Notes: generated from the letters alone by a model not told the origin. Shown: positions 25,573-59,669, numbered from the stretch's first letter. The stretch is DNA of 64,000 bases from a virus (IMGVR_UViG_3300045988_159773), one strand, 5' to 3'. Translations and numbers: made by a program.

Positions 25573-26043
25573 CTATACAAAAATATGGTGCTCTTTGGAA
25601 AGACGGCGCACCAGACCCGCTACACACGAAAAGTCAATTTCAAAAATCATAAGATAATGCGGATACTTGCGCAGGTATTTCAAGTGCCTCTTCTCCAACA
25701 TTAAAGCCGCAAGCATGGCGTTCCACAATGGCAAACTTTCCACATAGTCCGACAGCAAGAACTCCATTTCAAAGAAGTCATCCACGTCATAATCGCCACG
25801 CAGATAATGGCATAACTTGCAACTCGTTTCCATAAAACCCATTGCAATGTCAAGCGCACCGCCGCTCGCAATCATTTTTCGGGTCACGCTGCGAGGGATG
25901 GAATAAAGACGGCTTCGCTCATTTGACCTCTCAATCAAACGGCGCAAGCCGCCAGAAACCCCGAACCATATCAGATACATGAGTAAAATCGTGGACGTTA
26001 TGTTAATCAAAATCAGTGCTGTCAAAATCCTCTCCCTTCTCAT
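25573..26043 (-). CDS. membrane-anchored hypothetical protein
   Basis: 156 aa; N-terminal TM ILTALILINITSTILLMYLIWFGV. Confidence 0.5.
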   Translation of the reverse strand: MRRERILTALILINITSTILLMYLIWFGVSGGLRRLIERSNERSRLYSIPRSVTRKMIASGGALDIAMGFMETSCKLCHYLRGDYDVDDFFEMEFLLSDYVESLPLWNAMLAALMLEKRHLKYLRKYPHYLMIFEIDFSCVAGLVRRLSKEHHIFV

Positions 26044-26425
26044 TCACCTTTGGAACTCGCGACCAGTGCGTTGCGTAGCGCGGAAACGCCGTGTCAAGCG
26101 GTGTGCCACAGTAAGGTGGCTCCTCAATCGGCAAACGCCACCACAATACATCACCATCGTCCTCAGACCACGTGTCAGCGGGGTGCAAGTTCAACAGGTC
26201 GGCGAGCATAACACGCAAATTCTCAATCTGCTTGTTCGCTTCCACTAAGGCGGCTGCACTCTCCTTTGTCGCAAGCTCTTTCTCCTCGTTCCAAAGCAAG
26301 AGCAGAGCATCAGCGATTTGAGCTGCAAAGTCGGGTGTCGGAAAATCCGCGTATCGCGAATCACCGCTTGCGCGGAGCTGAATGCGCATTCCCATTAAAG
26401 TCTCGATGAGCGTGTTCCTATCCAT
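26003..26425 (-). CDS. hypothetical protein
   Basis: 140 aa, ATG after GAGGGAG. Confidence 0.55.
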   Translation of the reverse strand: MDRNTLIETLMGMRIQLRASGDSRYADFPTPDFAAQIADALLLLWNEEKELATKESAAALVEANKQIENLRVMLADLLNLHPADTWSEDDGDVLWWRLPIEEPPYCGTPLDTAFPRYATHWSRVPKVNEKGEDFDSTDFD

Positions 26426-26675
26426 TTCTCTCCCTCAATTTCGCTTCCGCGTCTGATTTCGACAGGAACACCGTCTTGCCGAGCGCGGAAAGCGCAGTCA
26501 AATATGTGCTGTTCTTTTCAAGGCGAAACCGAACTCGGTCTCCAATGACAAACTCAGCAATTTTCGTCTCCCAGAGTTTGCCCTCGCTATCAATGAACCA
26601 GACCACAGTCCCCACCGCAAGCGGCAAGTGTTCTTTCCAATTCATAATCTCATCTTTAAGGTCTAAATTATTCAT
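26418..26675 (-). CDS. hypothetical protein
   Basis: ORF 26418..26705 starts at TTG. First good ATG is 26675 (MNNLDLKDEIMNWKEH...) downstream of GAGGG. Start uncertain. Confidence 0.45.
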   Translation of the reverse strand: MNNLDLKDEIMNWKEHLPLAVGTVVWFIDSEGKLWETKIAEFVIGDRVRFRLEKNSTYLTALSALGKTVFLSKSDAEAKLRERNG

Positions 26676-26708
26676 TCTTCTTGCAACCCTCATTAATAAG
26701 TACAACCG

Positions 26709-28574
26709 CTACGAGAACTGTTTACCAAACTCCGCGATAAATTGTTCGCGCGTATACGTAATTATTGCCCCATCGACAATCTTGGTCTCGTACTTTCCTT
26801 TGCCACCCTTTATCCAGTGGCTTTGAATGTTCAGCCCGCGAGCCACTTTGATGGGAAATTGAATGTCGTCAAGCGATGCCACTGGAATCGGAACGCACCG
26901 ACAATTTCCCACAAAAATCGCTGGACAAAGTTGATAAATTCCAGTATAATGTTCAATGTTATGAACAAACAAAGAATCTATTCTTCTGACTTTTTTCACA
27001 AGGCGCACAAAATGCACACCATCGATAGAATCCCTATTTGCAAGGTCGCTTCCATCCTTGGATGCAAGAGCGACACGCTCAAGAATGGATTTATTCGTCT
27101 CGGACTCCCATTCACACTCAACATCCCCCCTGCGCAAAGCAAACTCCCCTCGAATAAAATTATTGACAAATTTAATAAAGGTCAGTCTGTTCTCAGCCTT
27201 TCCAAAGAATTCAACGTCGACCGTGGAGTTATTGTGAGACTGCTCAACAACAACGGAATCAAAGAGCGTACTGGTAGCCAAGCCAATATTATCAGATTCC
27301 AAAACACACCGCAAGACCAACTCAAACAGCTCACCAAATCTGCCAATGAGACTCTGCGCGGCAGAAAGTACACCGCTGACGAACTCCACGCCCGCGCCCT
27401 TAAAAGAGAGGTCAACGGAACTATGCACGCGCACATCGGATTCTTTGAAAACGAAGTCCGACAGGAATTTGAAAAGTTCGGATATAAAGTCACTCCGCAA
27501 AAAGCTATCTACGGATACAATGTCGACCTCTTTATCAACGATTCCGTCATTGTGGAAGTCGAACCCGTTGCTCAATTCCTTTTCAAGATGCCCAGCACAC
27601 ATAAAGGCAAAAAACTTAAAGAGCTGCTCAAAGGAAATTACAAGGTCATCTACATTGTTCCCATGAGCAAATCCGCGACTCCCTATAACATAGTCCCCCT
27701 CTTCCAACTCCTTGACCGAACGGAAACCGACTGGAGTCACGAATGGGTGATTAGGTGTAACAGTGACGGTAATGCCATCATCGAAAGTTAAATCAAAGAC
27801 TTCCCCCTCATACTCTCTGCGGTAAACCTTATTTATTCCGTAGAGAGTTTTTATTTCTGTTTCACCACTAAAACAATTAATGAACCGACCGCAGTGGTTC
27901 TGGTAGTTGTCAATCGTTGGCGGGTCATTCCAAAAGAACAGCACCCCGTCCAGAATAGAGTGGGAACTACGCACCCGCGAGTCCTCGCTTGTCGACCAGA
28001 TGTAAGCGTTCAGTCCGATTTTCTGCATACGTAATTGGGTAAGCGTCGAGGTGATTTTTGCAGACTCTGTGCGGATGATTACCCGCGCTCGCTTGCCCAG
28101 TCGCTCCGTCAGTTCTTTGGCAAACTCCGTACCGCGAAACGCCGTCCCTCTCTTATACGCCCTTTCCATATCGAGCGCGATGTCCTGCGGCAGGTCTTTG
28201 ATTAAGGACACGTTATGCCTGAACGCCTCCATGAACCTGTCGTAGTCCTCTTTGTTGTTCAGCAGATTTTTCGCCCGCAAATTCAAGTACTTGTTCCGTG
28301 GATTCTGAATGAACGCGCCGACAATCAACTCGAACTCCTTGCCCGACTTTGCAAAAGTCGAGTTCGACAGGTTGAGGATGGATTGCTTCAACGGCTTTAT
28401 GGTAAACTCGTGCAAAATCATATCAACCTCTTCGTATGATTTTGCCTTGCGAATGCGCGACGTAAGCTGTGCCTCGACTTGCGCTTTGAACGCCGCCGTC
28501 AGCAGATTCTCCTGTGTCCAATTCGATTTCAGTTTGCGATTTATCTTCCTACGGAGTCTTTTCGTCAATTTCAT
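26709..28574 (-). CDS. head morphogenesis protein (SPP1 gp7 / Mu F family) interrupted by an intein
   Basis: 621-aa ORF. N-extein ...ARVIIRTESAKITSTL...IWSTSEDSRVRSSHSILDGVLFFWNDPP...HCGRFIN and C-extein CRCVPIPV... together rebuild the family hallmark (R.E...; D.r.c..C..l.G; hpnCRC). Confidence 0.75.
   Translation of the reverse strand: MKLTKRLRRKINRKLKSNWTQENLLTAAFKAQVEAQLTSRIRKAKSYEEVDMILHEFTIKPLKQSILNLSNSTFAKSGKEFELIVGAFIQNPRNKYLNLRAKNLLNNKEDYDRFMEAFRHNVSLIKDLPQDIALDMERAYKRGTAFRGTEFAKELTERLGKRARVIIRTESAKITSTLTQLRMQKIGLNAYIWSTSEDSRVRSSHSILDGVLFFWNDPPTIDNYQNHCGRFINCFSGETEIKTLYGINKVYRREYEGEVFDLTFDDGITVTVTPNHPFVTPVGFRSVKELEEGDYVIGSRGFAHGNNVDDLVISFEQLFKFFAFMCAGHLEKELSNGFDFHNDGIVDKEVDIVSVDSFLRSDFISELFKFLSDFVFKESDVRVHSSVDLSFKGAGVEFVSGVLSAAQSLIGRFGELFELVLRCVLESDNIGLATSTLFDSVVVEQSHNNSTVDVEFFGKAENRLTFIKFVNNFIRGEFALRRGDVECEWESETNKSILERVALASKDGSDLANRDSIDGVHFVRLVKKVRRIDSLFVHNIEHYTGIYQLCPAIFVGNCRCVPIPVASLDDIQFPIKVARGLNIQSHWIKGGKGKYETKIVDGAIITYTREQFIAEFGKQFS
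26922..26950 (+). promoter_or_regulatory. sigma-70-like promoter on the plus strand (TGGACA-17 nt-TATAAT)
   Basis: -35 at 26922-26927, -10 at 26945-26950. First in-frame ATG after the expected transcription start is 26961 (near-leaderless). Confidence 0.4.
26961..27791 (+). CDS. homing-endonuclease-like protein (two HTH motifs + PD-(D/E)XK/Vsr-like nuclease) encoded antisense inside the intein
   Basis: Plus ORF 26742..27791; ATG at 26949 or 26961. IPICKVASILGCKSDTLKNGFIRLG and GQSVLSLSKEFNVDRGVIVRLLNNNG look like HTH motifs. GFFENEVRQEFEKFGYKV...YGYNVDLFINDSVIVEVE parallels the nuclease cores of 28571..29524 and 37160..38701. Only protein-like plus-strand ORF in the window. Confidence 0.6.
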   Translation: MNKQRIYSSDFFHKAHKMHTIDRIPICKVASILGCKSDTLKNGFIRLGLPFTLNIPPAQSKLPSNKIIDKFNKGQSVLSLSKEFNVDRGVIVRLLNNNGIKERTGSQANIIRFQNTPQDQLKQLTKSANETLRGRKYTADELHARALKREVNGTMHAHIGFFENEVRQEFEKFGYKVTPQKAIYGYNVDLFINDSVIVEVEPVAQFLFKMPSTHKGKKLKELLKGNYKVIYIVPMSKSATPYNIVPLFQLLDRTETDWSHEWVIRCNSDGNAIIES

Positions 28575-29524
28575 TTCAGCACCTCAATTACAAAACGCTC
28601 CGTCTCATCTCTACGATTTACCCAAGCGTCCTCTGTTATAAAATAAAGGTGCACCCCCTTTTCCGCGCACCGAGCCAACTTAATTGAGTTAAACTCATCT
28701 GAGGTCATCCCCTTCTTTTTAAGCAACACCTCATCAGAATGCCAGTAAGTCCCATTATACTCAAAAGCAACAAACTTATCTGGAATCAAAATATCCAACT
28801 CAAGCGGCGGTATAAACGTACGTGTGTTTACATCAATATCGCAACCACACACAGACCGAACAAAATCCTCAAGCTCCCTCTGCTGCGCCTGATAATTCCT
28901 GACCCAATCAACCCCCAAACGAGCCAAAGCACGACGTGCATGACCACTTCCACTAAAGCCAAAATAATCAATCAAACTATCGAAATCAACGTGCTTCCTT
29001 TCATCCACAAAACGCGCCTCGATAAACTCCCTTGTCAAGTCATCCACATTCCGCATATGAATATGCTTGTTATGCTCGACCCCATACTTATCAAGCATAG
29101 TTTTACGCTTCTTCATAAGTGCCTCCTCACTGCCACCCCCGAACGGAACACCATACCGCGCGACACATGTATCCTGAGCCTTCTTTTGAACAGCCACATT
29201 GCTAAATGGACTATTTCCACCAAACCGCTCCCTGTTTCTTTGTAAGGTTTTCTCCTTATTAGAACCCCACAACGCCACAGTAGAGCCGTACTTATCCATG
29301 CACGTTTGTTTCCTCTTCTCAATTGCTTTCTCAGTGTTTAGGGGGTTGCTATTCATGCACTGCAATTTTGCCGCACACGAACGACTACACGTGCCTTTCC
29401 AAATACTCTTCTCTTTTCCGCAAATAGGACAAGTGTCCATCGCATGAACGCACGATGGACACAAAGTAACTCTCATATTCCTAACATCAAACTCAGAGCC
29501 GCAATGCACACAAATCTTCTTCAT
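28571..29524 (-). CDS. free-standing homing-endonuclease-like protein (Zn-ribbons + PD-(D/E)XK/Vsr-like nuclease)
   Basis: ORF 28571..29560; ATG 29524 (MKKICVHCGSEF...) follows GTTATTTTAACT. Repeated ..KYG.. motifs. C-terminal QQRELEDFV...LELDILIPDKFVAFEYNGTYWHS. ATG 29560 (TAATG with the helicase stop) is an alternative start. Confidence 0.6.
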   Translation of the reverse strand: MKKICVHCGSEFDVRNMRVTLCPSCVHAMDTCPICGKEKSIWKGTCSRSCAAKLQCMNSNPLNTEKAIEKRKQTCMDKYGSTVALWGSNKEKTLQRNRERFGGNSPFSNVAVQKKAQDTCVARYGVPFGGGSEEALMKKRKTMLDKYGVEHNKHIHMRNVDDLTREFIEARFVDERKHVDFDSLIDYFGFSGSGHARRALARLGVDWVRNYQAQQRELEDFVRSVCGCDIDVNTRTFIPPLELDILIPDKFVAFEYNGTYWHSDEVLLKKKGMTSDEFNSIKLARCAEKGVHLYFITEDAWVNRRDETERFVIEVLK

Positions 29525-29526
29525 AG

Positions 29527-29536
29527 TTAAAATAAC
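29527..29536 (-). promoter_or_regulatory. late-promoter-like motif GTTATTTTAA, 2 nt from ATG
   Basis: Minus strand GATTGTTATTTTAACTATGAAGAAG. Confidence 0.4.
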
Positions 29537-29559
29537 AATCAGAGATGTATGTACCGTCA

Positions 29560-30903
29560 TTATTCAGAGTTTCGCTCGAACGCTTCTTGCTCCATTACCA
29601 CATACCTATCCACAATTTCAGAGTTCGAAAAAGTAGCCTTCGCATGAGGATTAAAACCCGTAACAAAAAGACCATCCAACGAGCGCACACGACTGAACGC
29701 AACGTATACTTGCCCATTCATAAACATCCTTGAGCAATCAATAAATGCCGCGTCAACCGACGTGCCCTGTGATTTATGTACGGTTATAGCATAAGCCAAC
29801 CGCAACGGCAACTGGTTGATGGTTGCCAGCGTGACGTCAATTCCGCGCTCGTTTTTCTCGGTCGGATTAAAGATGGTCTCTTCTTCGACCGTGTACACGA
29901 TGCCGCTGTCAAACCGCACGATGGGATTGCCGTAGGTATCGGAAAGCCCGAACCCCTCATCCTCCGTTCCAATGCCAGAGAACCCGATGACCTCACCCAG
30001 AGAGCCGTTGAACAGATACCCTCCGTCAACGTCCTTGTTCTTACACATCATCACCCGCGCACCGACACGCAACACCAACTCCTCTGGAATTAGCGAGTCT
30101 TTCCAATACGCTCGAATAAGGTTCTCGTCTCCGTAGGAATCCGCGCGGAACTTTCGCTCCGTGGCGGGGTCAAGTTTGTTGAACTTGAACACATTGTACT
30201 GGTCAACCTCTGCGTTGGTCGAGAACAGCCGAATTGCCGTGTCATCGGCGGGAACCTCGCGCGACTTGATACGTGCAATGTCCTGCGCGTTCAACTTGTT
30301 GTACCTCAACCGAGTAAGGATACGGTAGAACTCGTCGTCCCCAGACTGACGGAAATTCGATGTCATAAGCATCGTCTTGATGTTTGCCTCTTTCCAACAC
30401 TTGCAGTCCCAGCAGATTTTATCGTTGGCTGACGTGCCCTTAAACACAGGCGGCAACTGCAAAAAGTCACCGAACAGCGCGACCTGAACCCCGCCGAACG
30501 GAAGTGAGGAATCCCTCACCATCTTACAAATCTCGCTCACACACTCGAGCAGAGCGTCCGACACCATCGAAATCTCGTCGATTATGAGTAACTTTGCCGA
30601 ACGGACAGCCCAACCCCGCTTACCAGCATCAACCTTATTCGCACTCTCCTTTGCGTTCGGCGCACTGGGATTGATGAGGAACTGCGAGTGCAACGTGCGC
30701 CCGCCGACATTGTTCGCCGCGATGCCCGTGCTTGCCGTCGTCAATACTCGACCCTTGTAGTTCGCTCGTATGAAGTCAATAAGGAAAGACTTGCCAGCAC
30801 CCGCGCGTGCGGTTACAAACAAGTTCTCCCCAGCATTGAGGGCGTCCCAGCACATCTTTTGGTCAACGCTTAATATTGAAGTGTCTACAATCCTTTCGTC
30901 CAT
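29560..30903 (-). CDS. Pif1/RecD/Dda-like SF1 DNA helicase
   Basis: 447 aa. Walker A ARAGAGKSF, Walker B LLIIDEISMV, C-terminal AITVHKSQGTSVD. Confidence 0.8.
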   Translation of the reverse strand: MDERIVDTSILSVDQKMCWDALNAGENLFVTARAGAGKSFLIDFIRANYKGRVLTTASTGIAANNVGGRTLHSQFLINPSAPNAKESANKVDAGKRGWAVRSAKLLIIDEISMVSDALLECVSEICKMVRDSSLPFGGVQVALFGDFLQLPPVFKGTSANDKICWDCKCWKEANIKTMLMTSNFRQSGDDEFYRILTRLRYNKLNAQDIARIKSREVPADDTAIRLFSTNAEVDQYNVFKFNKLDPATERKFRADSYGDENLIRAYWKDSLIPEELVLRVGARVMMCKNKDVDGGYLFNGSLGEVIGFSGIGTEDEGFGLSDTYGNPIVRFDSGIVYTVEEETIFNPTEKNERGIDVTLATINQLPLRLAYAITVHKSQGTSVDAAFIDCSRMFMNGQVYVAFSRVRSLDGLFVTGFNPHAKATFSNSEIVDRYVVMEQEAFERNSE

Positions 30904-33663: not shown

Positions 33664-34659
33664 TCAACCCTTCAATACGCTGTTCGGATGCCTCCAATTC
33701 TCATTAGTGGTATCGCGCACCCGCAGGTATCCGTCCTCGGCTTCCTCGGCCACGACGTGCGTCTCGACTGGGCTTACCGACCTTATCCTATACAACGAGA
33801 ACAGGCAACGCGCTTCCTCATCTCCGTCCTTGCTGTAAAGATTCGGCAGATGACCGCGCAACGCCAAGTCCGTAACTGTCGGCAGTTTCATGATTTCGTA
33901 GTTCGTGCACAGGGTCGAGAGGAATCCCTCAAACCCCTTCGGGAACAGAGGGTCGCCATCTTTACATCCCGCTGCAATCGCGTCCACAGTGTTGTACTTC
34001 TCCGCAATTTCCTTTGCCACCTTCTTTCTGATGCGCGGAAACCCTGGCAGATTGTCCGAACTGTCCCCGACCATCGCCCTGTACAGCGGCAACGCGTCGA
34101 TACGGCAACCGAGAAACTTATCGGTGTATTTCGGGTCTTCGTAGTAAGTCTTCAAATCGACCAACTTCAACCTGCCGTCGGTATCGAACTCCTTCGCAAT
34201 AAAGATGTTGTCACCCGCCGCGAGAAGTTGCAACATATCCCCGTCCGCAGAATACACGATGATGCGCTCGTATTCCGACTGCCACATCTGCGCCATATAC
34301 GCGATAACTTCGTCCGCTTCCAGAGCGCGGTGGAAAGCAATTTGCGTGCGATCAAACGCCGCCGCACACTCAGCAATGACACCCAAGTCATCAAACGCCG
34401 TTGCAACCGTGCCGTGCCCGCGATTCGCTTTGTACTCTGGATTAAGGCTCGTGCCGTGAACAGCCACGCCGTCCAGACAGAATACGATGTCCGCCTCTGG
34501 GTGCTTCGTGTTCAGTGACTTCAACAGCCGAGCGACACCATACAAATGCCCAGATTTCAGCACCGTGCCGTTATGCAGTGTCACCTGCAAGTCCTGATGA
34601 ACGTGCCACATACGGTGGATGACCCACGATGCGTCAATAAGTATTAGTTCCTTTTTCAT
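33664..34659 (-). CDS. 5'-3' exonuclease / flap endonuclease (RNase H-like, PIN domain)
   Basis: 331 aa. LIDASWVIHR, LDGV...EYKANR, YSADGDMLQL, MVGDSSDNLPGFPRIRKKVAKEI. Confidence 0.8.
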   Translation of the reverse strand: MKKELILIDASWVIHRMWHVHQDLQVTLHNGTVLKSGHLYGVARLLKSLNTKHPEADIVFCLDGVAVHGTSLNPEYKANRGHGTVATAFDDLGVIAECAAAFDRTQIAFHRALEADEVIAYMAQMWQSEYERIIVYSADGDMLQLLAAGDNIFIAKEFDTDGRLKLVDLKTYYEDPKYTDKFLGCRIDALPLYRAMVGDSSDNLPGFPRIRKKVAKEIAEKYNTVDAIAAGCKDGDPLFPKGFEGFLSTLCTNYEIMKLPTVTDLALRGHLPNLYSKDGDEEARCLFSLYRIRSVSPVETHVVAEEAEDGYLRVRDTTNENWRHPNSVLKG

Positions 34660-37159: not shown

Positions 37160-38701
37160 TTATAAATCAAAAACATAATGCAAAGTGCCCGCATTTGCCA
37201 ACGTCAGTAAATTTCCAATCTCATCCTGGTGCTTAACAGCAGAATGATATTGTGGCATTCTTGAATACACCTTACCAACGCTTGGAATAAAACAGTCACC
37301 TGTCTTATTGAATAGCGTGCATTCTTTCATAAATATTATTCGAACGCTCGGTGGTGTAACCTCAATAAACCTTCCTCCCATAGCCGCCAACGAAGTACCT
37401 GCATGCTTATCAAAATCAACAAAATAATGCACTTCCTTAACACTGGGATAATGTCTCCTCGCCCAATCCTTAACGTGCCTCATCAATCTGCTTGCACCAC
37501 CAACAACAACCGTATTTAACGCAGTTGCCGAACGACCTATCTCGAGAGCCGTCCTATCATACCCACCACGACCTGTTTGCTTAAAAGTAACTCCATAAGC
37601 CATTAAAATTCTTCCGTCAAACTCCAAACCAAAAGTAACAATGGTACCGCCCTTTGCACCAAACTCACTATTTTGCTTAAAGAACTTCTCCGACTCTGAA
37701 TGACTCAACTCGCGTAAAATACACTTTCTTGCAAACACACGATTCGAACGACCGAAACAACCTAAAACCTGAGATTTTATCCTCTCTCGTATCCTCTCAT
37801 CATCCCATTCCCAATCCCAAATATGAATAAGGCGTATTCCATTCTCACGACACACCAACGACTTATCTTGATGATACTTCATTGGATTTGAAACACGCTT
37901 TGACAACTGCTGGACAGAGTGCCAATAAGAGCCGTTGAACTCAATAGCCATCTTAGCGTCTTCAAAATAAAAATCTAGCTCCTTTCCATGTAACACAGTA
38001 CGGTTACTCGCTTCGAACACCAATCCCTCATCACGTAACCACGAACCAATCAAAGTCTCATACGAACTCTTTTGAGTACGCTCCAATTTCAAAGTACCAT
38101 ATTCACTGCGCGACGCTATCGCGTGCAACGGCAAACCTAAACGCGTTGCAACCACCCTAGCGGTACGATCTTCAATCGGCAAACTATCCACGTACTGCTG
38201 CAACAAAACCTCATCATCAAGCATCTTCAAGGTCTCAATTGGCAAGTCACCATACACACCCCGATAAAAATCTATTCTGTCAACCTCAGACCACCTCCGA
38301 AACATCGCGTCCGAACACCCAATAGAGAATGCCTCTCGATGACCACCATCATCTCGCTTCCAATGCTCCAACATCTTCCTTCGTTTAGACTCAAGCAGAC
38401 TCGGATTATCTTCATAACGCTTTTTATGAATCTGAGACAACTTCTCTGAACGCTCTGCTCGTTGTTCATCAGTAAGGCTTGCTTCATACAACTTCACAGA
38501 CTCGGAAATCTTTGCATGCGCTTCCTTATTAGAGGTCCATCCGATAACCGCGCACTTCTTACTACAATATTTATCTCTTCTCCAATTCATAGGTTTGCCG
38601 CACACAATGCAAATCTTATCTTTTCTGCAATCTGGACAAACCTTACAACTCGTAGTAGATTCAAACTCTTTTCCGCACTGCGAACAAGTCTCTATTCTCA
38701 T
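37160..38701 (-). CDS. free-standing homing-endonuclease-like protein (Zn-ribbons + PD-(D/E)XK/Vsr-like nuclease + C-terminal domain)
   Basis: ORF 37160..38782. ATG 38701 (MRIETCSQCGKEF...) lies after the capsid-gene terminator and GGTGGG. ...SYETLIGSWLRDEGLVFEASNRTVLHGKELDFYFEDAKMAIEFNGSYWHS. Confidence 0.6.
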   Translation of the reverse strand: MRIETCSQCGKEFESTTSCKVCPDCRKDKICIVCGKPMNWRRDKYCSKKCAVIGWTSNKEAHAKISESVKLYEASLTDEQRAERSEKLSQIHKKRYEDNPSLLESKRRKMLEHWKRDDGGHREAFSIGCSDAMFRRWSEVDRIDFYRGVYGDLPIETLKMLDDEVLLQQYVDSLPIEDRTARVVATRLGLPLHAIASRSEYGTLKLERTQKSSYETLIGSWLRDEGLVFEASNRTVLHGKELDFYFEDAKMAIEFNGSYWHSVQQLSKRVSNPMKYHQDKSLVCRENGIRLIHIWDWEWDDERIRERIKSQVLGCFGRSNRVFARKCILRELSHSESEKFFKQNSEFGAKGGTIVTFGLEFDGRILMAYGVTFKQTGRGGYDRTALEIGRSATALNTVVVGGASRLMRHVKDWARRHYPSVKEVHYFVDFDKHAGTSLAAMGGRFIEVTPPSVRIIFMKECTLFNKTGDCFIPSVGKVYSRMPQYHSAVKHQDEIGNLLTLANAGTLHYVFDL

Positions 38702-38708
38702 AACCCAC

Positions 38709-38745
38709 CAAAATAAAATACTCGTAGAGGAAACTCTACGAGTAT
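38709..38745 (-). terminator. strong intrinsic terminator after the major capsid gene
   Basis: Minus strand ATACTCGTAGAG-TTTC-CTCTACGAGTAT followed by TTTATTTT. Confidence 0.75.
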
Positions 38746-38778
38746 TATAACAATTTTGGTTAGACTTTTTTGCCCCTA

Positions 38779-39885
38779 TCAAGCAAAGTCGTAGTACTTG
38801 ATGGGTGCAGTGAGGTCCGCCGCGTCCGTGTTGTACATCATCTGAATCTGCGAAACCTGACCCACGAACAGCGAAACGTATTCCGCGTTGGTGATGTCGG
38901 GCAGAGTGATGTACAGGCTGATGGCGTAAGGGATATCCAAACGCAGGAAATCCTCGTCATAGCGGTACGCAACGATACGACCGTGGCTGTTCGTGCCCAT
39001 GCCGCTGAGCTGAGGACGTCCCTTCAGTTTCAAACGGTAGTTCTCCACGCCCGCCGCGATGGACTCGTCGATGCCCATGTTGTGCCCCATGATGAACTCG
39101 CGGAGCGTTGCCGTATACAGCGTGCTGAAACGGCTGGTAAGCTCGGTCGCATCCTCGACAGGCATAAGAATGTTGTCGGGAATAAGGGCGAGGTTCATGT
39201 TGGACTGAATCAGCGAGTCGCTGATGATGCCGTTGATGAGAGCCACAACCTCGCCGTCGGTCATCTGCGCAAAGCCCGTGCTCGCGGGAGCAAGCGTGCC
39301 AGCGGGAATAACCGAAACAGGAACGCGCGAGTCGCTGGTGAACAGACCGTCGTTGCCGTTCGCGCCGAGATACGCAATCTTGTTGACGAAGATATCAAAG
39401 CCCGCAACGATTGCGTCCTTGTAGATGGCTTCGAGCGATTTCGTGAAATTGACCTTGTTCAGTTTCTCGACCTCGATGAACTTCAGCCCGTACGCGATTT
39501 CGTAGGTGAATACATCCACCTTGTTCGCGTTGGCTTTCGCGTTCACACGCTGAACCTGGTTCACGTTGTTGCCGACCAGAGTGGTCTCATCGCCCTGACC
39601 AGCCCACTCGACCGTGTAGTATTCCACAAAGTCGACCAAGCCGCCGCCGACCTTGACAGGAATATCCTGGGCGTACGTGGTATTCCACTTCGGTTCGTAA
39701 ACCTTTTCGTGGAGTTTTGCAAGCGACGTCTGTACGAATGCAAAGTTCGAGTCATGCAGACGTCTGTCGCTGACGAGTTTCTTTGCCATAGCGGGGCTCG
39801 CGTCGAACACGCTGATGCCCGCAGGGTCGTACTGGAACGAGGATGCATGCATCTGACGGTCTTTCAAATTGATTTGAGTTAACAT
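38779..39885 (-). CDS. major capsid protein (DUF2184-like)
   Basis: 368 aa, ATG after GGAGGAGG. Preceded by scaffold- and decoration-like genes and followed by a strong terminator. Family assignment by eye only. Confidence 0.6.
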   Translation of the reverse strand: MLTQINLKDRQMHASSFQYDPAGISVFDASPAMAKKLVSDRRLHDSNFAFVQTSLAKLHEKVYEPKWNTTYAQDIPVKVGGGLVDFVEYYTVEWAGQGDETTLVGNNVNQVQRVNAKANANKVDVFTYEIAYGLKFIEVEKLNKVNFTKSLEAIYKDAIVAGFDIFVNKIAYLGANGNDGLFTSDSRVPVSVIPAGTLAPASTGFAQMTDGEVVALINGIISDSLIQSNMNLALIPDNILMPVEDATELTSRFSTLYTATLREFIMGHNMGIDESIAAGVENYRLKLKGRPQLSGMGTNSHGRIVAYRYDEDFLRLDIPYAISLYITLPDITNAEYVSLFVGQVSQIQMMYNTDAADLTAPIKYYDFA

Positions 39886-58124: not shown

Positions 58125-58177
58125 GTCGCACCCCGAAAATCGAGATGCGACTGACCACAAAATTAAATTGTCGCATC
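58125..58177. promoter_or_regulatory. three GTCGCA(T/C)C half-sites forming overlapping inverted repeats (candidate operator)
   Basis: GTCGCACC 58125-58132, GATGCGAC 58144-58151, GTCGCATC 58170-58177, in the 106-nt gap upstream of the XRE gene. Confidence 0.35.
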
Positions 58178-58200
58178 AGCCCACAGAGTGGGGATTGAGG

Positions 58201-59151
58201 CTAACGCCTCAATCCCATCCCCGTCATACGCGCCACGATTTGGTAAGCCGCCGCCAGAATCGTCATGCCGTAAGCCACGCGCTCGAACTGGTACTCCTCG
58301 TTGCCAGTGTTGCGGCTGCTTTCCTTATGCGTGTCATAATCGCTTGCCGCGAGGATTGCACCGTACGCCGTGCCTCTGAACCTTGCGATGTCTTCCTCTT
58401 CGTACGCCGCAGTAAGGTCGGTGATGATGCTCTGCTGACCGCGCGTAATCTTTTCCTCTTCGCCCTCGTTCGGAACCTCGATGCCCGCGAGCTCCTTCGT
58501 CAGAGCCTTGAACTGCTCGTCGCTGAAAGGCTGTTTCGCCAACAACTCAGCACGCGCACGCAACGCCTCGATGTATTGGTTGTTCTGCATAATGAGCTGC
58601 TTCGCGATGTCCAAGCGGTCTTTGACGTGCTTCGTGTGCGAGATGCGCAGTTTGACGATTCCGTTCTCATGTCCAGGTATCGGAATCATAAGTCCGTTTT
58701 CACAGACCAGCCGCATCGGGGTGAACATCGCGTTGATGCTTCCGCCACCGTCATGGCTGTTCGTGAACAGGATTGTCGGATACACTTCGTCTCCGCAGAT
58801 GTCAACGGACGGAGCCTCGCCGACCATGAACACGCGCTCACCCTTGTTGTATGTACCCGCCTTCGTAAAGGTGATACCCTCGCCCAGACAGTCGTCGATG
58901 AAATCGAAACCGTCTCTGTTCTGAACGACTTCGTAGCCGCCCTTTACGATGCCCAGCACCTGCTCGGTATCCGTGCGCACCGTTGCGAACTTGTTGGTGA
59001 TTTTCTTCTCGCCCGCGAGGAAAATCGGTCTCTTTTCAACCGTCCAGTCAAGTCCCGCTTTCGCGATAACTTCGTCGACCGAACTGCACCCTACGACTTC
59101 CGCGCCCATCTTTGCGTAATAAGGTTTACGCTCACTTGCCATCTGCTTCAT
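58201..59151 (-). CDS. DUF932 / phage-plasmid TIGR03299-like protein
   Basis: 316 aa; ATG after ACGGAGGA. ...LDWTVEKRPIF...FATVRTDTEQVLGIVKGGYEVVQN...ILFTNSHDGGGSINAMFTPMRLVCENG is the characteristic DUF932 layout. Confidence 0.6.
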   Translation of the reverse strand: MKQMASERKPYYAKMGAEVVGCSSVDEVIAKAGLDWTVEKRPIFLAGEKKITNKFATVRTDTEQVLGIVKGGYEVVQNRDGFDFIDDCLGEGITFTKAGTYNKGERVFMVGEAPSVDICGDEVYPTILFTNSHDGGGSINAMFTPMRLVCENGLMIPIPGHENGIVKLRISHTKHVKDRLDIAKQLIMQNNQYIEALRARAELLAKQPFSDEQFKALTKELAGIEVPNEGEEEKITRGQQSIITDLTAAYEEEDIARFRGTAYGAILAASDYDTHKESSRNTGNEEYQFERVAYGMTILAAAYQIVARMTGMGLRR

Positions 59152-59210
59152 TTGAAAAATCCTCCGTTGTTTTATTTATGTTCAAGCCGAAAAGCTCTAA
59201 CACACCAAAA

Positions 59211-59669
59211 TTACTCGTTAACTACTGTTACAAAACTGTCCACATAGCCCTGCAAGATTTCGAGTGCGTTTCCGATGACCGCGTTCTTTTCACGGATGAT
59301 GTACTCGGGAACGTGACGCTCGCGCTTCGCGTTTCTTTCAAGAGCCGTTTTCAAGCTCACTTTCACATAGCACAGCTCGACCCAGAAACCATACTCTTGC
59401 GCTTCCTTGATGATTCCGACAACGCGCTCCGCGTTCGTAGCCGTCGTATCATAAATAAAGTCTTCATCACCGCAAATCGCTTTCGTAAGCTCAATGCGCT
59501 CGAGCCTCTTGCTTTCTTCGTGAACCGCCGCAGGATTCAAAGGGTCGTATCCCTTGCACAACTTTTTCAACTCGTCGCAATCTATGGTTTTCAGACCTGC
59601 GTAACGTGCACGCGCTACCGTGCTTTTGCCCGCCCCGCTCAAACCTGCCATGATAACCATCTTTTTCAT
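59211..59669 (-). CDS. P-loop kinase (AAA_33 / zeta-toxin / polynucleotide-kinase-like)
   Basis: ORF 59211..59711; ATG 59669 follows GGAGGTTTCTT. MKKMVIMAGLSGAGKST Walker A. Confidence 0.55.
   Translation of the reverse strand: MKKMVIMAGLSGAGKSTVARARYAGLKTIDCDELKKLCKGYDPLNPAAVHEESKRLERIELTKAICGDEDFIYDTTATNAERVVGIIKEAQEYGFWVELCYVKVSLKTALERNAKRERHVPEYIIREKNAVIGNALEILQGYVDSFVTVVNE

Follow-up and report, generated by a model that had tools for sequence, protein, structure and literature searches.

How can one segment of a phage head gene be read as an intein on one strand and as an endonuclease gene on the other, and which of the two frames does selection preserve? The question is raised by a MuF/SPP1 gp7-type head-morphogenesis gene in a stretch of viral DNA of 64,000 nucleotides (nt) (IMGVR_UViG_3300045988_159773), here called the window, in which all positions are counted from the first letter. 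An open reading frame (ORF) of 276 codons lies on the plus strand, wholly within an intein that interrupts this minus-strand gene. The locus is most probably a composite homing element, combining a contiguous intein in the phage MuF gene with an antisense Vsr-like endonuclease gene. Its anatomy, the homologies of its parts, the frame-specific selection acting on them, the selection within the family for keeping both frames open, and the presence/absence pattern with a co-conversion-like tract in relatives are all directly observed. The element is not a new class; it is another example of a known architecture, one that is more widespread than has been reported.

The host gene (26709..28574, minus strand) encodes a precursor of 621 amino acids (aa) including the intein, with matches to PF04233 (Phage_Mu_F; E 8e-11) and to phrog_15127, annotated as "head protein" (6e-67). 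Its translation reads ...HCGRFIN|CFSGETEIKTLYG...TVTPNHPF...AIFVGN|CRCVPIPV. The unspliced precursor scores 43.1 bits against PF04233, over profile positions 2-99 of 112 and with a cut-off of 29.6, and in silico deletion of residues 234-557 raises this to 55.8 bits over positions 1-110, with a match that spans the junction. An intein at the NCRC motif of a MuF gene, as proposed by the sequence-only reading of the window, is in agreement with this gain. The N-extein (residues 1-233; 27876..28574, minus strand) ends in ...HCGRFIN, and the C-extein (64 aa; 26712..26903, minus strand) starts with CRCVPIPV and, after deletion of the insert, continues the PF04233 match over the junction. In 471 phage records, the alignment with the spliced sequence crosses the junction without a break. 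Homologs lacking the intein, which had been suggested as a check of the proposal, were also found: seven from IMG/VR (L028-L034; 35-43% identity, 295-313 aa) run contiguously through ...G(E)(F/Y)PN|CRC...PV...DIQFPIKVA, and intein-less alleles of Jersey-like phages are likewise contiguous over the junction. Other homologs (P0151-P0156) have the same architecture as the window precursor, and the precomputed Pfam assignment for each is PF14890. Together, these comparisons support the assignment of the host gene to the MuF family and of the insert to an intein placed at a conserved contiguous motif. The window MuF gene is 100% identical to that of two IMG/VR contigs (3300045988_153601 and _173223); a megablast search of 26000-29600 against phage genomes gave zero matches, leaving the window without a close cultured relative, and the neighbouring helicase reaches at most 38% identity.

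The insert is a class-1 intein of 324 codons (residues 234-557; 26904..27875, minus strand), starting with CFSGETEI and placed immediately before the Cys of the NCRC motif. Its boundary features read as originally described, with Cys1, block B (TPNH), a terminal Asn preceded by Gly, and Cys at position +1. An orthologous intein occupies the identical site in 14 phage loci; C234, N557 and C558 are invariant in these loci and in seven aligned homologs, and block B (T273-P-N-H276) is invariant in the aligned homologs. The N-terminal splicing (Hint) region, comprising blocks A and B and approximately intein residues 1-95 (27591..27875, minus strand), retains C[FL]xG...TPNHP[FV]LT...GD in all relatives, and its residues 30-95 overlap the tail of the endonuclease ORF. 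The C-terminal splicing region with blocks F and G (26904..27023, minus strand; ...SLFVHNIEHYTGIYQLCPAIFVGN) aligns with ...GHVYNLQ...VxN|C of the relatives, and its opposite strand carries the promoter-like site and the start codon of the endonuclease gene. Between these regions, the intein interior (27024..27590, minus strand) is, in the MuF frame, a reverse-complement read-through of the endonuclease gene with no recognizable domain. In that frame it gave zero matches to Pfam families and no meaningful match in PDB, and its pLDDT (predicted local distance difference test) values were 20-34 in an AlphaFold2 model of the whole precursor based on a seven-sequence alignment. From the arrangement of its splicing blocks, the precursor would be expected to splice, joining ...GRFIN to CRCVPIPV....

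The antisense homing-endonuclease gene (26961..27791, plus strand; 276 aa) begins with ATG at 26961 and ends with a TAA stop at 27789-27791, and its identification is based on homologs, a structural model and purifying selection. The codon boundaries of both strands fall in a single register, with all coordinates 0 mod 3. The exact codon alignment that had been noticed is thereby borne out, and intein residue 306-r is in consequence the reverse complement of plus-strand residue r. The exclusion of TTA, CTA and TCA predicted from this alignment also holds: none occurs in the endonuclease frame, and the sole such codon in the intein frame is the TTA of Leu-29, which corresponds to the TAA stop of the endonuclease. 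The plus frame is open from 26700, and the ORF listing gives 349 aa from TTG 26742; ATG 26961 is preferred as the start solely because the N-termini of homologs match there.

The same arrangement was found in 14 phage records, comprising Aggregatibacter phage Aaphi23, Gordonia phages Fosterous and Vivi2, Edwardsiella phage MSW-3, three Klebsiella records, a Helicobacter prophage, and six Jersey-like phages of Salmonella/E. coli, as well as in metagenome contigs L015, L017-L019, L021 and L022. Both frames were open and codon-aligned in 17 of the 17 loci tested (the 14 phage loci, L015, L017 and L018), the same antisense arrangement occurs at the same site in L019, L021 and L022, and the intein-frame ORF is uninterrupted in all 20 loci examined. 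The inspected loci (four database hits and 14 phage-record matches) included no free-standing member of the family. The antisense ORF is annotated in none of the 14 GenBank/RefSeq phage records (L001-L014). Metagenome catalogues tend to list it only where a short contig truncates the MuF gene, as with P0001 on a 1.1-kb contig.

Start signals for the antisense gene differ between the window and its relatives. The TGGACA-17-TATAAT sequence reported ahead of the plus ORF is present at 26922..26950 (plus strand), where it agrees with 11 of the 12 consensus positions of a sigma-70-like promoter; as a consensus match only, it is a promoter candidate. It ends 10 nt before ATG 26961, and a plus-strand mRNA initiated from it would be leaderless or near-leaderless. 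TATAAT is kept in L017 and L018, the close relatives used for comparison (97% and 71% aa identity, respectively), and the same stretch also encodes intein block G. Among the relatives, a Shine-Dalgarno (SD) site precedes the antisense ATG, with GGAGG in Aaphi23 and the P0001 contig, AGGAG in the Helicobacter prophage and GGAG in Klebsiella. The block F codons His-Val-Tyr-Asn-Leu, reverse-complemented, give the SD and ATG of these relatives (L001, L004, L005, L007, L015). At the corresponding position in the window (26951..26963), the SD is lost and the ATG is moved by two codons relative to the relatives. At the opposite end of the gene, the reverse complement of block B TPNHP gives, by hand derivation, the (Y)WVIRC that is conserved at the C-terminus within the endonuclease family; the strict signature occurs in 88 of the 150 top homologs, and variants such as HVIRG in most others. 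The window ORF stops approximately 25 codons before the ends of most homologs.

The protein encoded by the antisense ORF belongs to a large family. An exhaustive HMMER search of 1.84 billion representatives of 50%-identity clusters returned 1026 homologs at E <= 1e-3, with 216 of these reaching E <= 1e-10; the majority are about 280-300 aa long and aligned from end to end. A word-index protein search with the same protein found nothing, since such an index cannot reach that far and antisense ORFs are seldom called, and an exact-sequence look-up showed that the protein is not on record. When the single protein was compared with PDB by phmmer, only a resolvase helix-turn-helix (HTH) was recovered, and the link to nucleases required profiles. 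A 38-member profile matched resolvase-type and Sleeping Beauty-type HTH structures twice, together with 3hrl (6.8e-4) and 3r3p (0.014); a profile of the nuclease region alone matched 3r3p, the catalytic domain of I-Bth0305I, at E 2.3e-4 and 3hrl at 5.6e-3. Pfam families detected among the 38 members were HTH_7 (17/38), HTH_23 (17/38) and REase_MTES_1575 (PF18741; 12/38). These matches delimit two HTH DNA-binding modules at approximately residues 9-46 and 57-97 (26985..27251, plus strand; resolvase HTH and Sleeping Beauty PAI subdomain profiles) and a predicted Vsr-like/EDxHD-type PD-(D/E)XK nuclease core at approximately residues 160-235 (27438..27665, plus strand; 3r3p, 3hrl and PF18741). The AlphaFold2 model of the protein, built on the family alignment, has a mean pLDDT of 89.8, and Foldseek relates it to 3r3p with a probability of 1.00, a template modelling (TM) score of 0.59 and E 0.011. 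The matches to 3r3p and 3hrl are modest but concordant, and support the prediction of a Vsr-like nuclease. The family-invariant residues G160, E163, Q180, D189 and E199 are all present in the window protein. L019 (P0003), L021 (P0038) and L022 (P0048), whose proteins are divergent members of the family, show additional HTH repeats (as many as four) together with a canonical E-x-F-G-G-x-W-H nuclease motif. The HTH motifs and the Vsr-like PD-(D/E)XK core attributed to the ORF by the sequence-only reading are upheld by the profiles and by Foldseek. The resemblance it drew to two other endonuclease-like genes of the window was not confirmed, as neither phmmer nor the family profile connected the plus ORF with 28571..29560 or 37160..38782 at E <= 10.

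The frame preserved by selection was identified from substitutions between the window and L018, counted at positions 1/2/3 of the MuF-frame codons. The N-extein showed a normal minus-strand coding pattern (60/43/117), as did the C-extein (18/12/36) and Hint residues 1-29, which lie outside the plus ORF (3/3/10). The intein interior (intein residues 96-284) showed 61/14/36, which differs from the combined exteins at 78/55/153 (Fisher p = 1.5e-6): the most variable position in the interior is the third position of the plus-strand codons, whereas the exteins and Hint residues 1-29 follow the MuF pattern. The balanced pattern of Hint residues 30-95, where the plus-ORF tail overlaps the splicing domain (14/4/14), indicates dual constraint. 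Amino-acid changes in the interior between the window and L018 numbered 42 in the plus frame versus 60 in the MuF frame. Among the six Jersey-like phages, interior substitutions were distributed 31:2:7 over plus-frame positions 3:2:1 (p = 1e-4), and in tblastn searches against three distant phages the plus-strand protein obtained 81-94 bits, whereas the interior, when read in the intein frame, obtained only 29-45 bits. The plus ORF is a real gene under purifying selection, and the intein interior is passenger read-through.

These results bear directly on the converse interpretation, in which a functional endonuclease or other domain constitutes the in-frame intein interior and the plus ORF is a mere shadow ORF. 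The window by itself lends this interpretation some credit, as many long codon-aligned antisense ORFs occur there, the probability that such a frame is open is about 0.04, and the codon-usage scores of the interior lie above zero whichever frame is read (intein frame 0.21, plus frame 0.175). Codon-usage log-likelihood was dropped as a frame test on account of these two positive scores, and substitution patterns were used instead. With substitutions concentrated on the third positions of the plus frame, and with two to three times more tblastn bits obtained in the plus frame from the same DNA, the interpretation is already contradicted and highly improbable. The sequence-only reading had itself identified as its counter-case a minus-strand interior matching an endonuclease opposite a plus ORF without homologs; the reverse was found, with an interior that has neither a Pfam nor a PDB match and very low pLDDT, and a plus frame with 1026 homologs, nuclease and HTH matches and a pLDDT of 89.8.

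The coexistence of two open frames has to be judged against codon usage. TTA, CTA and TCA together account for 1.1% of codons in the 29 minus-strand genes of the window, and a codon-aligned antisense frame is therefore expected to contain 3.1 stops per 277 codons, with a probability of 0.044 of containing none; the earlier expectation of about a dozen stops was too high. On the plus strand of the window, 28 ORFs reach 150 aa or more, and most of these are shadows of genes on the minus strand (33688-34518, 38770-39882 and 58168-59247 are examples). Given P ~0.04 and the many shadow ORFs, the openness of both frames in the window alone was dropped as evidence. The antisense ORF had also been described as the only protein-like one on the plus strand; in view of the 28 long ORFs it is not alone, but the codon-usage scores of the others are negative (mean -0.14, maximum 0.04) versus +0.16 for the antisense ORF. 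Throughout the window, every long gene lies on the minus strand and the GC skew is uniformly negative. When the chance that the endonuclease frame avoids TTA, CTA and TCA was calculated from each lineage's own Leu/Ser codon usage, it was 1e-6 for Aaphi23, 2e-7 for the Helicobacter prophage (35% GC), ~4e-6 for Klebsiella and ~3e-4 for Salmonella. The significance of the double-open state is overwhelming only across the relatives.

Such avoidance is also relevant to the possibility of a fractured gene, in which the two MuF halves are made separately and trans-spliced around a free-standing endonuclease gene. A Vsr-like endonuclease gene between intein halves is exactly the arrangement described by Dassa et al. 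2009 (PMC2677866). However, the intein frame is uninterrupted in every one of the loci examined, and avoidance of TTA, CTA and TCA far beyond chance in several lineages implies selection for read-through. No internal start or SD for the C-terminal half was noticed, though no search was made for one. Among the alternatives considered for this locus, a fractured gene is the least probable.

Evidence for mobility of the composite element comes from the Jersey-like phages, in which the intein is carried by 58 of the 391 records matching the sidste MuF gene. Sampled intein-less records gave two-piece matches spanning 1029-1044 nt, the full span of 1044 being 1860 minus 816; alleles with and without the intein thus differ in length by exactly 816 nt. 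When spliced, the sidste gene (L006 2135-3994) and the intein-less S104 gene (L024 301-1344) are of equal length and differ at 55 sites, 34 of them at third positions; all 55 fall between positions -122 and +89 relative to the point of insertion, and outside this interval the two genes are identical. This co-conversion-like tract is what would be expected from flanking-marker co-conversion or from target-site divergence under endonuclease-driven homing. Between the window and L017, divergence is ~9 per 100 nt in the N-extein and further downstream, and 0-5 per 100 nt over the intein; overall it comes to about 2% within the intein versus about 9% for the flanks, which suggests a recent transfer. 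Approximately 400 nt 3' of the intein (26487..26887), covering the C-extein and the next gene (26418..26705), differ from L017 by 2-5 per 100 nt, with ~10 or more further out. This low-divergence stretch may represent a co-conversion tract in the window lineage.

A homing signature of this kind in the Jersey-like phages, with presence/absence of the intein and co-conversion-like tracts, is not what a host function would leave, and it speaks against co-option of the antisense gene or its transcript for a role other than homing, either as an HTH regulator or as an antisense RNA modulating MuF expression. The two HTH modules of the protein would suit the former role, and a plus-strand transcript, fully complementary to the MuF mRNA, the latter; the association also appears ancient and obligate, with no free-standing member among the inspected loci. 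The nuclease core residues are conserved family-wide, however, and co-option is considered very improbable.

Several observations weigh against the interpretation of the locus as a composite homing element. Well supported as it is, the interpretation draws on comparative evidence, and for the window taken by itself, having both frames open is no more than marginally improbable (P ~0.04). The splicing domain scores poorly, with PF14890 (Intein_splicing) reaching 25.4-27.3 bits (E 1e-5 to 4e-6), under its gathering score of 35.8, and a weak PT-HINT match. The penultimate intein residue is Gly (FVGN) in the window, L017 and L018, and H, S, R or K in relatives. The penultimate His of block G is common among inteins but not obligatory, and inteins without it can still splice; the Gly is a reason for caution and no refutation of splicing. 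The AlphaFold2 model of the full precursor is poor (pLDDT 43.7) because of the alignment of only seven sequences, and the description of the interior as unstructured relies mainly on missing homology. No SD site lies ahead of ATG 26961 in the window, although relatives have one. The window nuclease is without the G-G-x-W-H motif, which supplies an equivalent of the EDxHD His in members such as P0003, P0038 and P0048, and its activity is less certain for that reason. In addition, no intein-less allele was found among the closest relatives, since L017, L018 and L025-L027 all bear the intein, and the low divergence of the intein from L017 could partly reflect dual-coding constraint and not recent transfer.

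Some of these points would fit a different history, in which the intein is functional, the antisense ORF has become a relic without present expression or activity, and the element is inherited vertically as a large "mini-intein" with a junk linker. The missing SD, an end about 25 codons early together with the absent GGxWH motif, and the presence of the intein in all close relatives, which fits fixation, are compatible with such a relic, and this kind of decay is predicted by the homing-cycle model of Gosselin, Arsenault & Gogarten (bioRxiv 10.1101/2025.01.02.630785). Nevertheless, at 18% nucleotide divergence purifying selection continues to act on the plus frame (61/14/36, and fewer amino-acid changes than in the intein frame), none of the family-invariant residues is lost, L017 and L018 both retain an intact ORF, and the divergence trough relative to L017 suggests recent transfer. 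A relic is conceivable but unlikely.

Under the preferred interpretation, that of a composite homing element, late minus-strand mRNA would be translated straight through the 324-residue class-1 intein. The Hint segments at the two ends of the intein, with Cys1, TPNH, the terminal Asn and Cys+1, would then excise it and restore the NCRC motif of MuF. The ~190 central residues would not form a domain; as codon-aligned reverse-complement read-through, their sole requirement would be the absence of a stop codon, and the interior is free of stops because the endonuclease gene never uses TTA, CTA or TCA. The plus-strand gene would be expressed from its own start signals, a near-consensus promoter for a leaderless mRNA in the window and a GGAGG Shine-Dalgarno site in relatives, and its 276-aa product would combine two HTH modules with a Vsr-like/EDxHD nuclease. 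This nuclease would cut intein-less MuF alleles of co-infecting phages, and in the course of repair the cut allele would acquire the intein together with the nuclease gene and part of the flanking extein. Antisense placement would uncouple expression of the nuclease from that of the late, abundant structural protein. The splicing, the transcription and translation of the plus ORF, and the cleavage and its target in this scheme are predicted from sequence features and comparison. The element may have originated when a free-standing gene invaded a mini-intein.

The sequence-only reading knew of no description of this architecture for inteins, and in this respect it has to be corrected. In their 2025 preprint, Gosselin, Arsenault & Gogarten described full inteins of actinophages, with minor capsid proteins among the hosts, that enclose VSR-like and LAGLIDADG endonucleases in anti-sense orientation; an HHpred match to 3R3P pointed to an EDxHD enzyme, and invasion of the intein by a free-standing endonuclease gene was proposed. 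Like the window locus, those actinophage elements consist of a contiguous intein in a minor capsid (MuF-type) protein, with the antisense endonuclease between the splicing blocks, a Vsr-like fold linked to 3R3P plus an additional helical region, and an interior that is unrecognizable in the intein frame. The window endonuclease has direct homologs (tblastn 1e-13 to 1e-14) in Gordonia phages Fosterous, Vivi2 and Affeca, where the ORFs likewise run antisense to MuF and occupy the same insertion site. The main text of the preprint leaves its VSR-like examples unnamed, and these Gordonia homologs may or may not be among them. Unlike those elements, the window belongs to an uncultivated phage of ~50% GC that is no actinophage. 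The arrangement was called "extremely rare" by Gosselin et al., whereas it is widespread here, with 1026 protein hits and occurrences in Salmonella, Klebsiella, Edwardsiella, Aggregatibacter and Helicobacter phages. In the main text of the preprint, no mention was found of exact codon alignment, frame-specific selection or the overlap of SD/ATG with block F. The contributions of the present analysis that may go beyond it are the breadth of distribution, which takes in phages of Proteobacteria and Campylobacterota and some 1000 protein clusters, the strict codon alignment in every case, the frame-specific selection, the overlap with blocks F and B, the Jersey-like tract, and the lack of a free-standing member in the inspected loci.

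Other known systems share part of this organization. The anti-sense LAGLIDADG ORFs of inteins such as that of Synechocystis DnaX (Gorbalenya 1998; Gogarten 2002), as cited in the preprint, likewise place an endonuclease ORF opposite a contiguous in-frame intein; as far as that citation describes them, they differ from the window in encoding a LAGLIDADG and not a Vsr-like PD-(D/E)XK nuclease, and in their host proteins. By that account, descriptions of antisense endonucleases in inteins date back to 1998. In the "fractured genes" of Dassa et al., found mainly in phages and proposed as a route for the entry of endonucleases into inteins, a gene for a putative homing endonuclease of Vsr-like type that has its own control elements lies between the intein parts, as in the window. 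However, the intein there is split and trans-splicing, and the hosts are enzymes of DNA synthesis and repair, whereas in the window the intein is contiguous by read-through of the reverse complement of the endonuclease, and the host gene is structural. The closest solved catalytic domain to the window nuclease is that of I-Bth0305I (PDB 3R3P; PMC3239194), an EDxHD enzyme from the recA group I intron of Bacillus phage 0305phi8-36. Unlike the window protein, I-Bth0305I is intron-encoded on the same strand as its host gene and has a different N-terminal DNA-binding region, and the window protein has no clear equivalent of the motif His.

The locus provides a clean natural case of two proteins encoded codon for codon on opposite strands over ~830 nt, with the two frames selected for different reasons: one for its protein sequence, the other only to stay open, plus splicing at its ends. 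It supports the view of intein evolution in which the splicing domain came first and the endonuclease was acquired later. Gene callers systematically miss one of the two genes, or mis-call on short contigs. A broader proposal is that this is an ancient, very successful and obligately antisense mobile element, present in phages of Proteobacteria, Campylobacterota and Actinobacteria and not a rare accident, in which parts are truly dual-coding (SD and ATG with block F; (Y)WVIRC with TPNHP) and the orientation is adaptive, allowing early, low-level nuclease expression from inside a late structural gene. The case for this proposal falls slightly short of even. If it is correct, most or all of the ~1000 matching metagenome clusters of "300-aa hypothetical proteins" would be embedded ORFs. 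The arrangement is present in well-studied groups, the Jersey-like phages of Salmonella and Aaphi23 among them, and there direct tests of splicing, antisense expression and homing would be feasible.

Directly upstream of the MuF gene, the window carries a free-standing homing-endonuclease-like gene (DUF7487, phrog_3339; 28571..29560, minus strand) that overlaps the MuF start codon in an ATGA. This gene is missing from the otherwise collinear L017 and L018, in which MuF comes immediately after the helicase gene, and it is therefore an insertion polymorphism. A paralog (phmmer 1.7e-10) is located at 37160..38782 on the minus strand.

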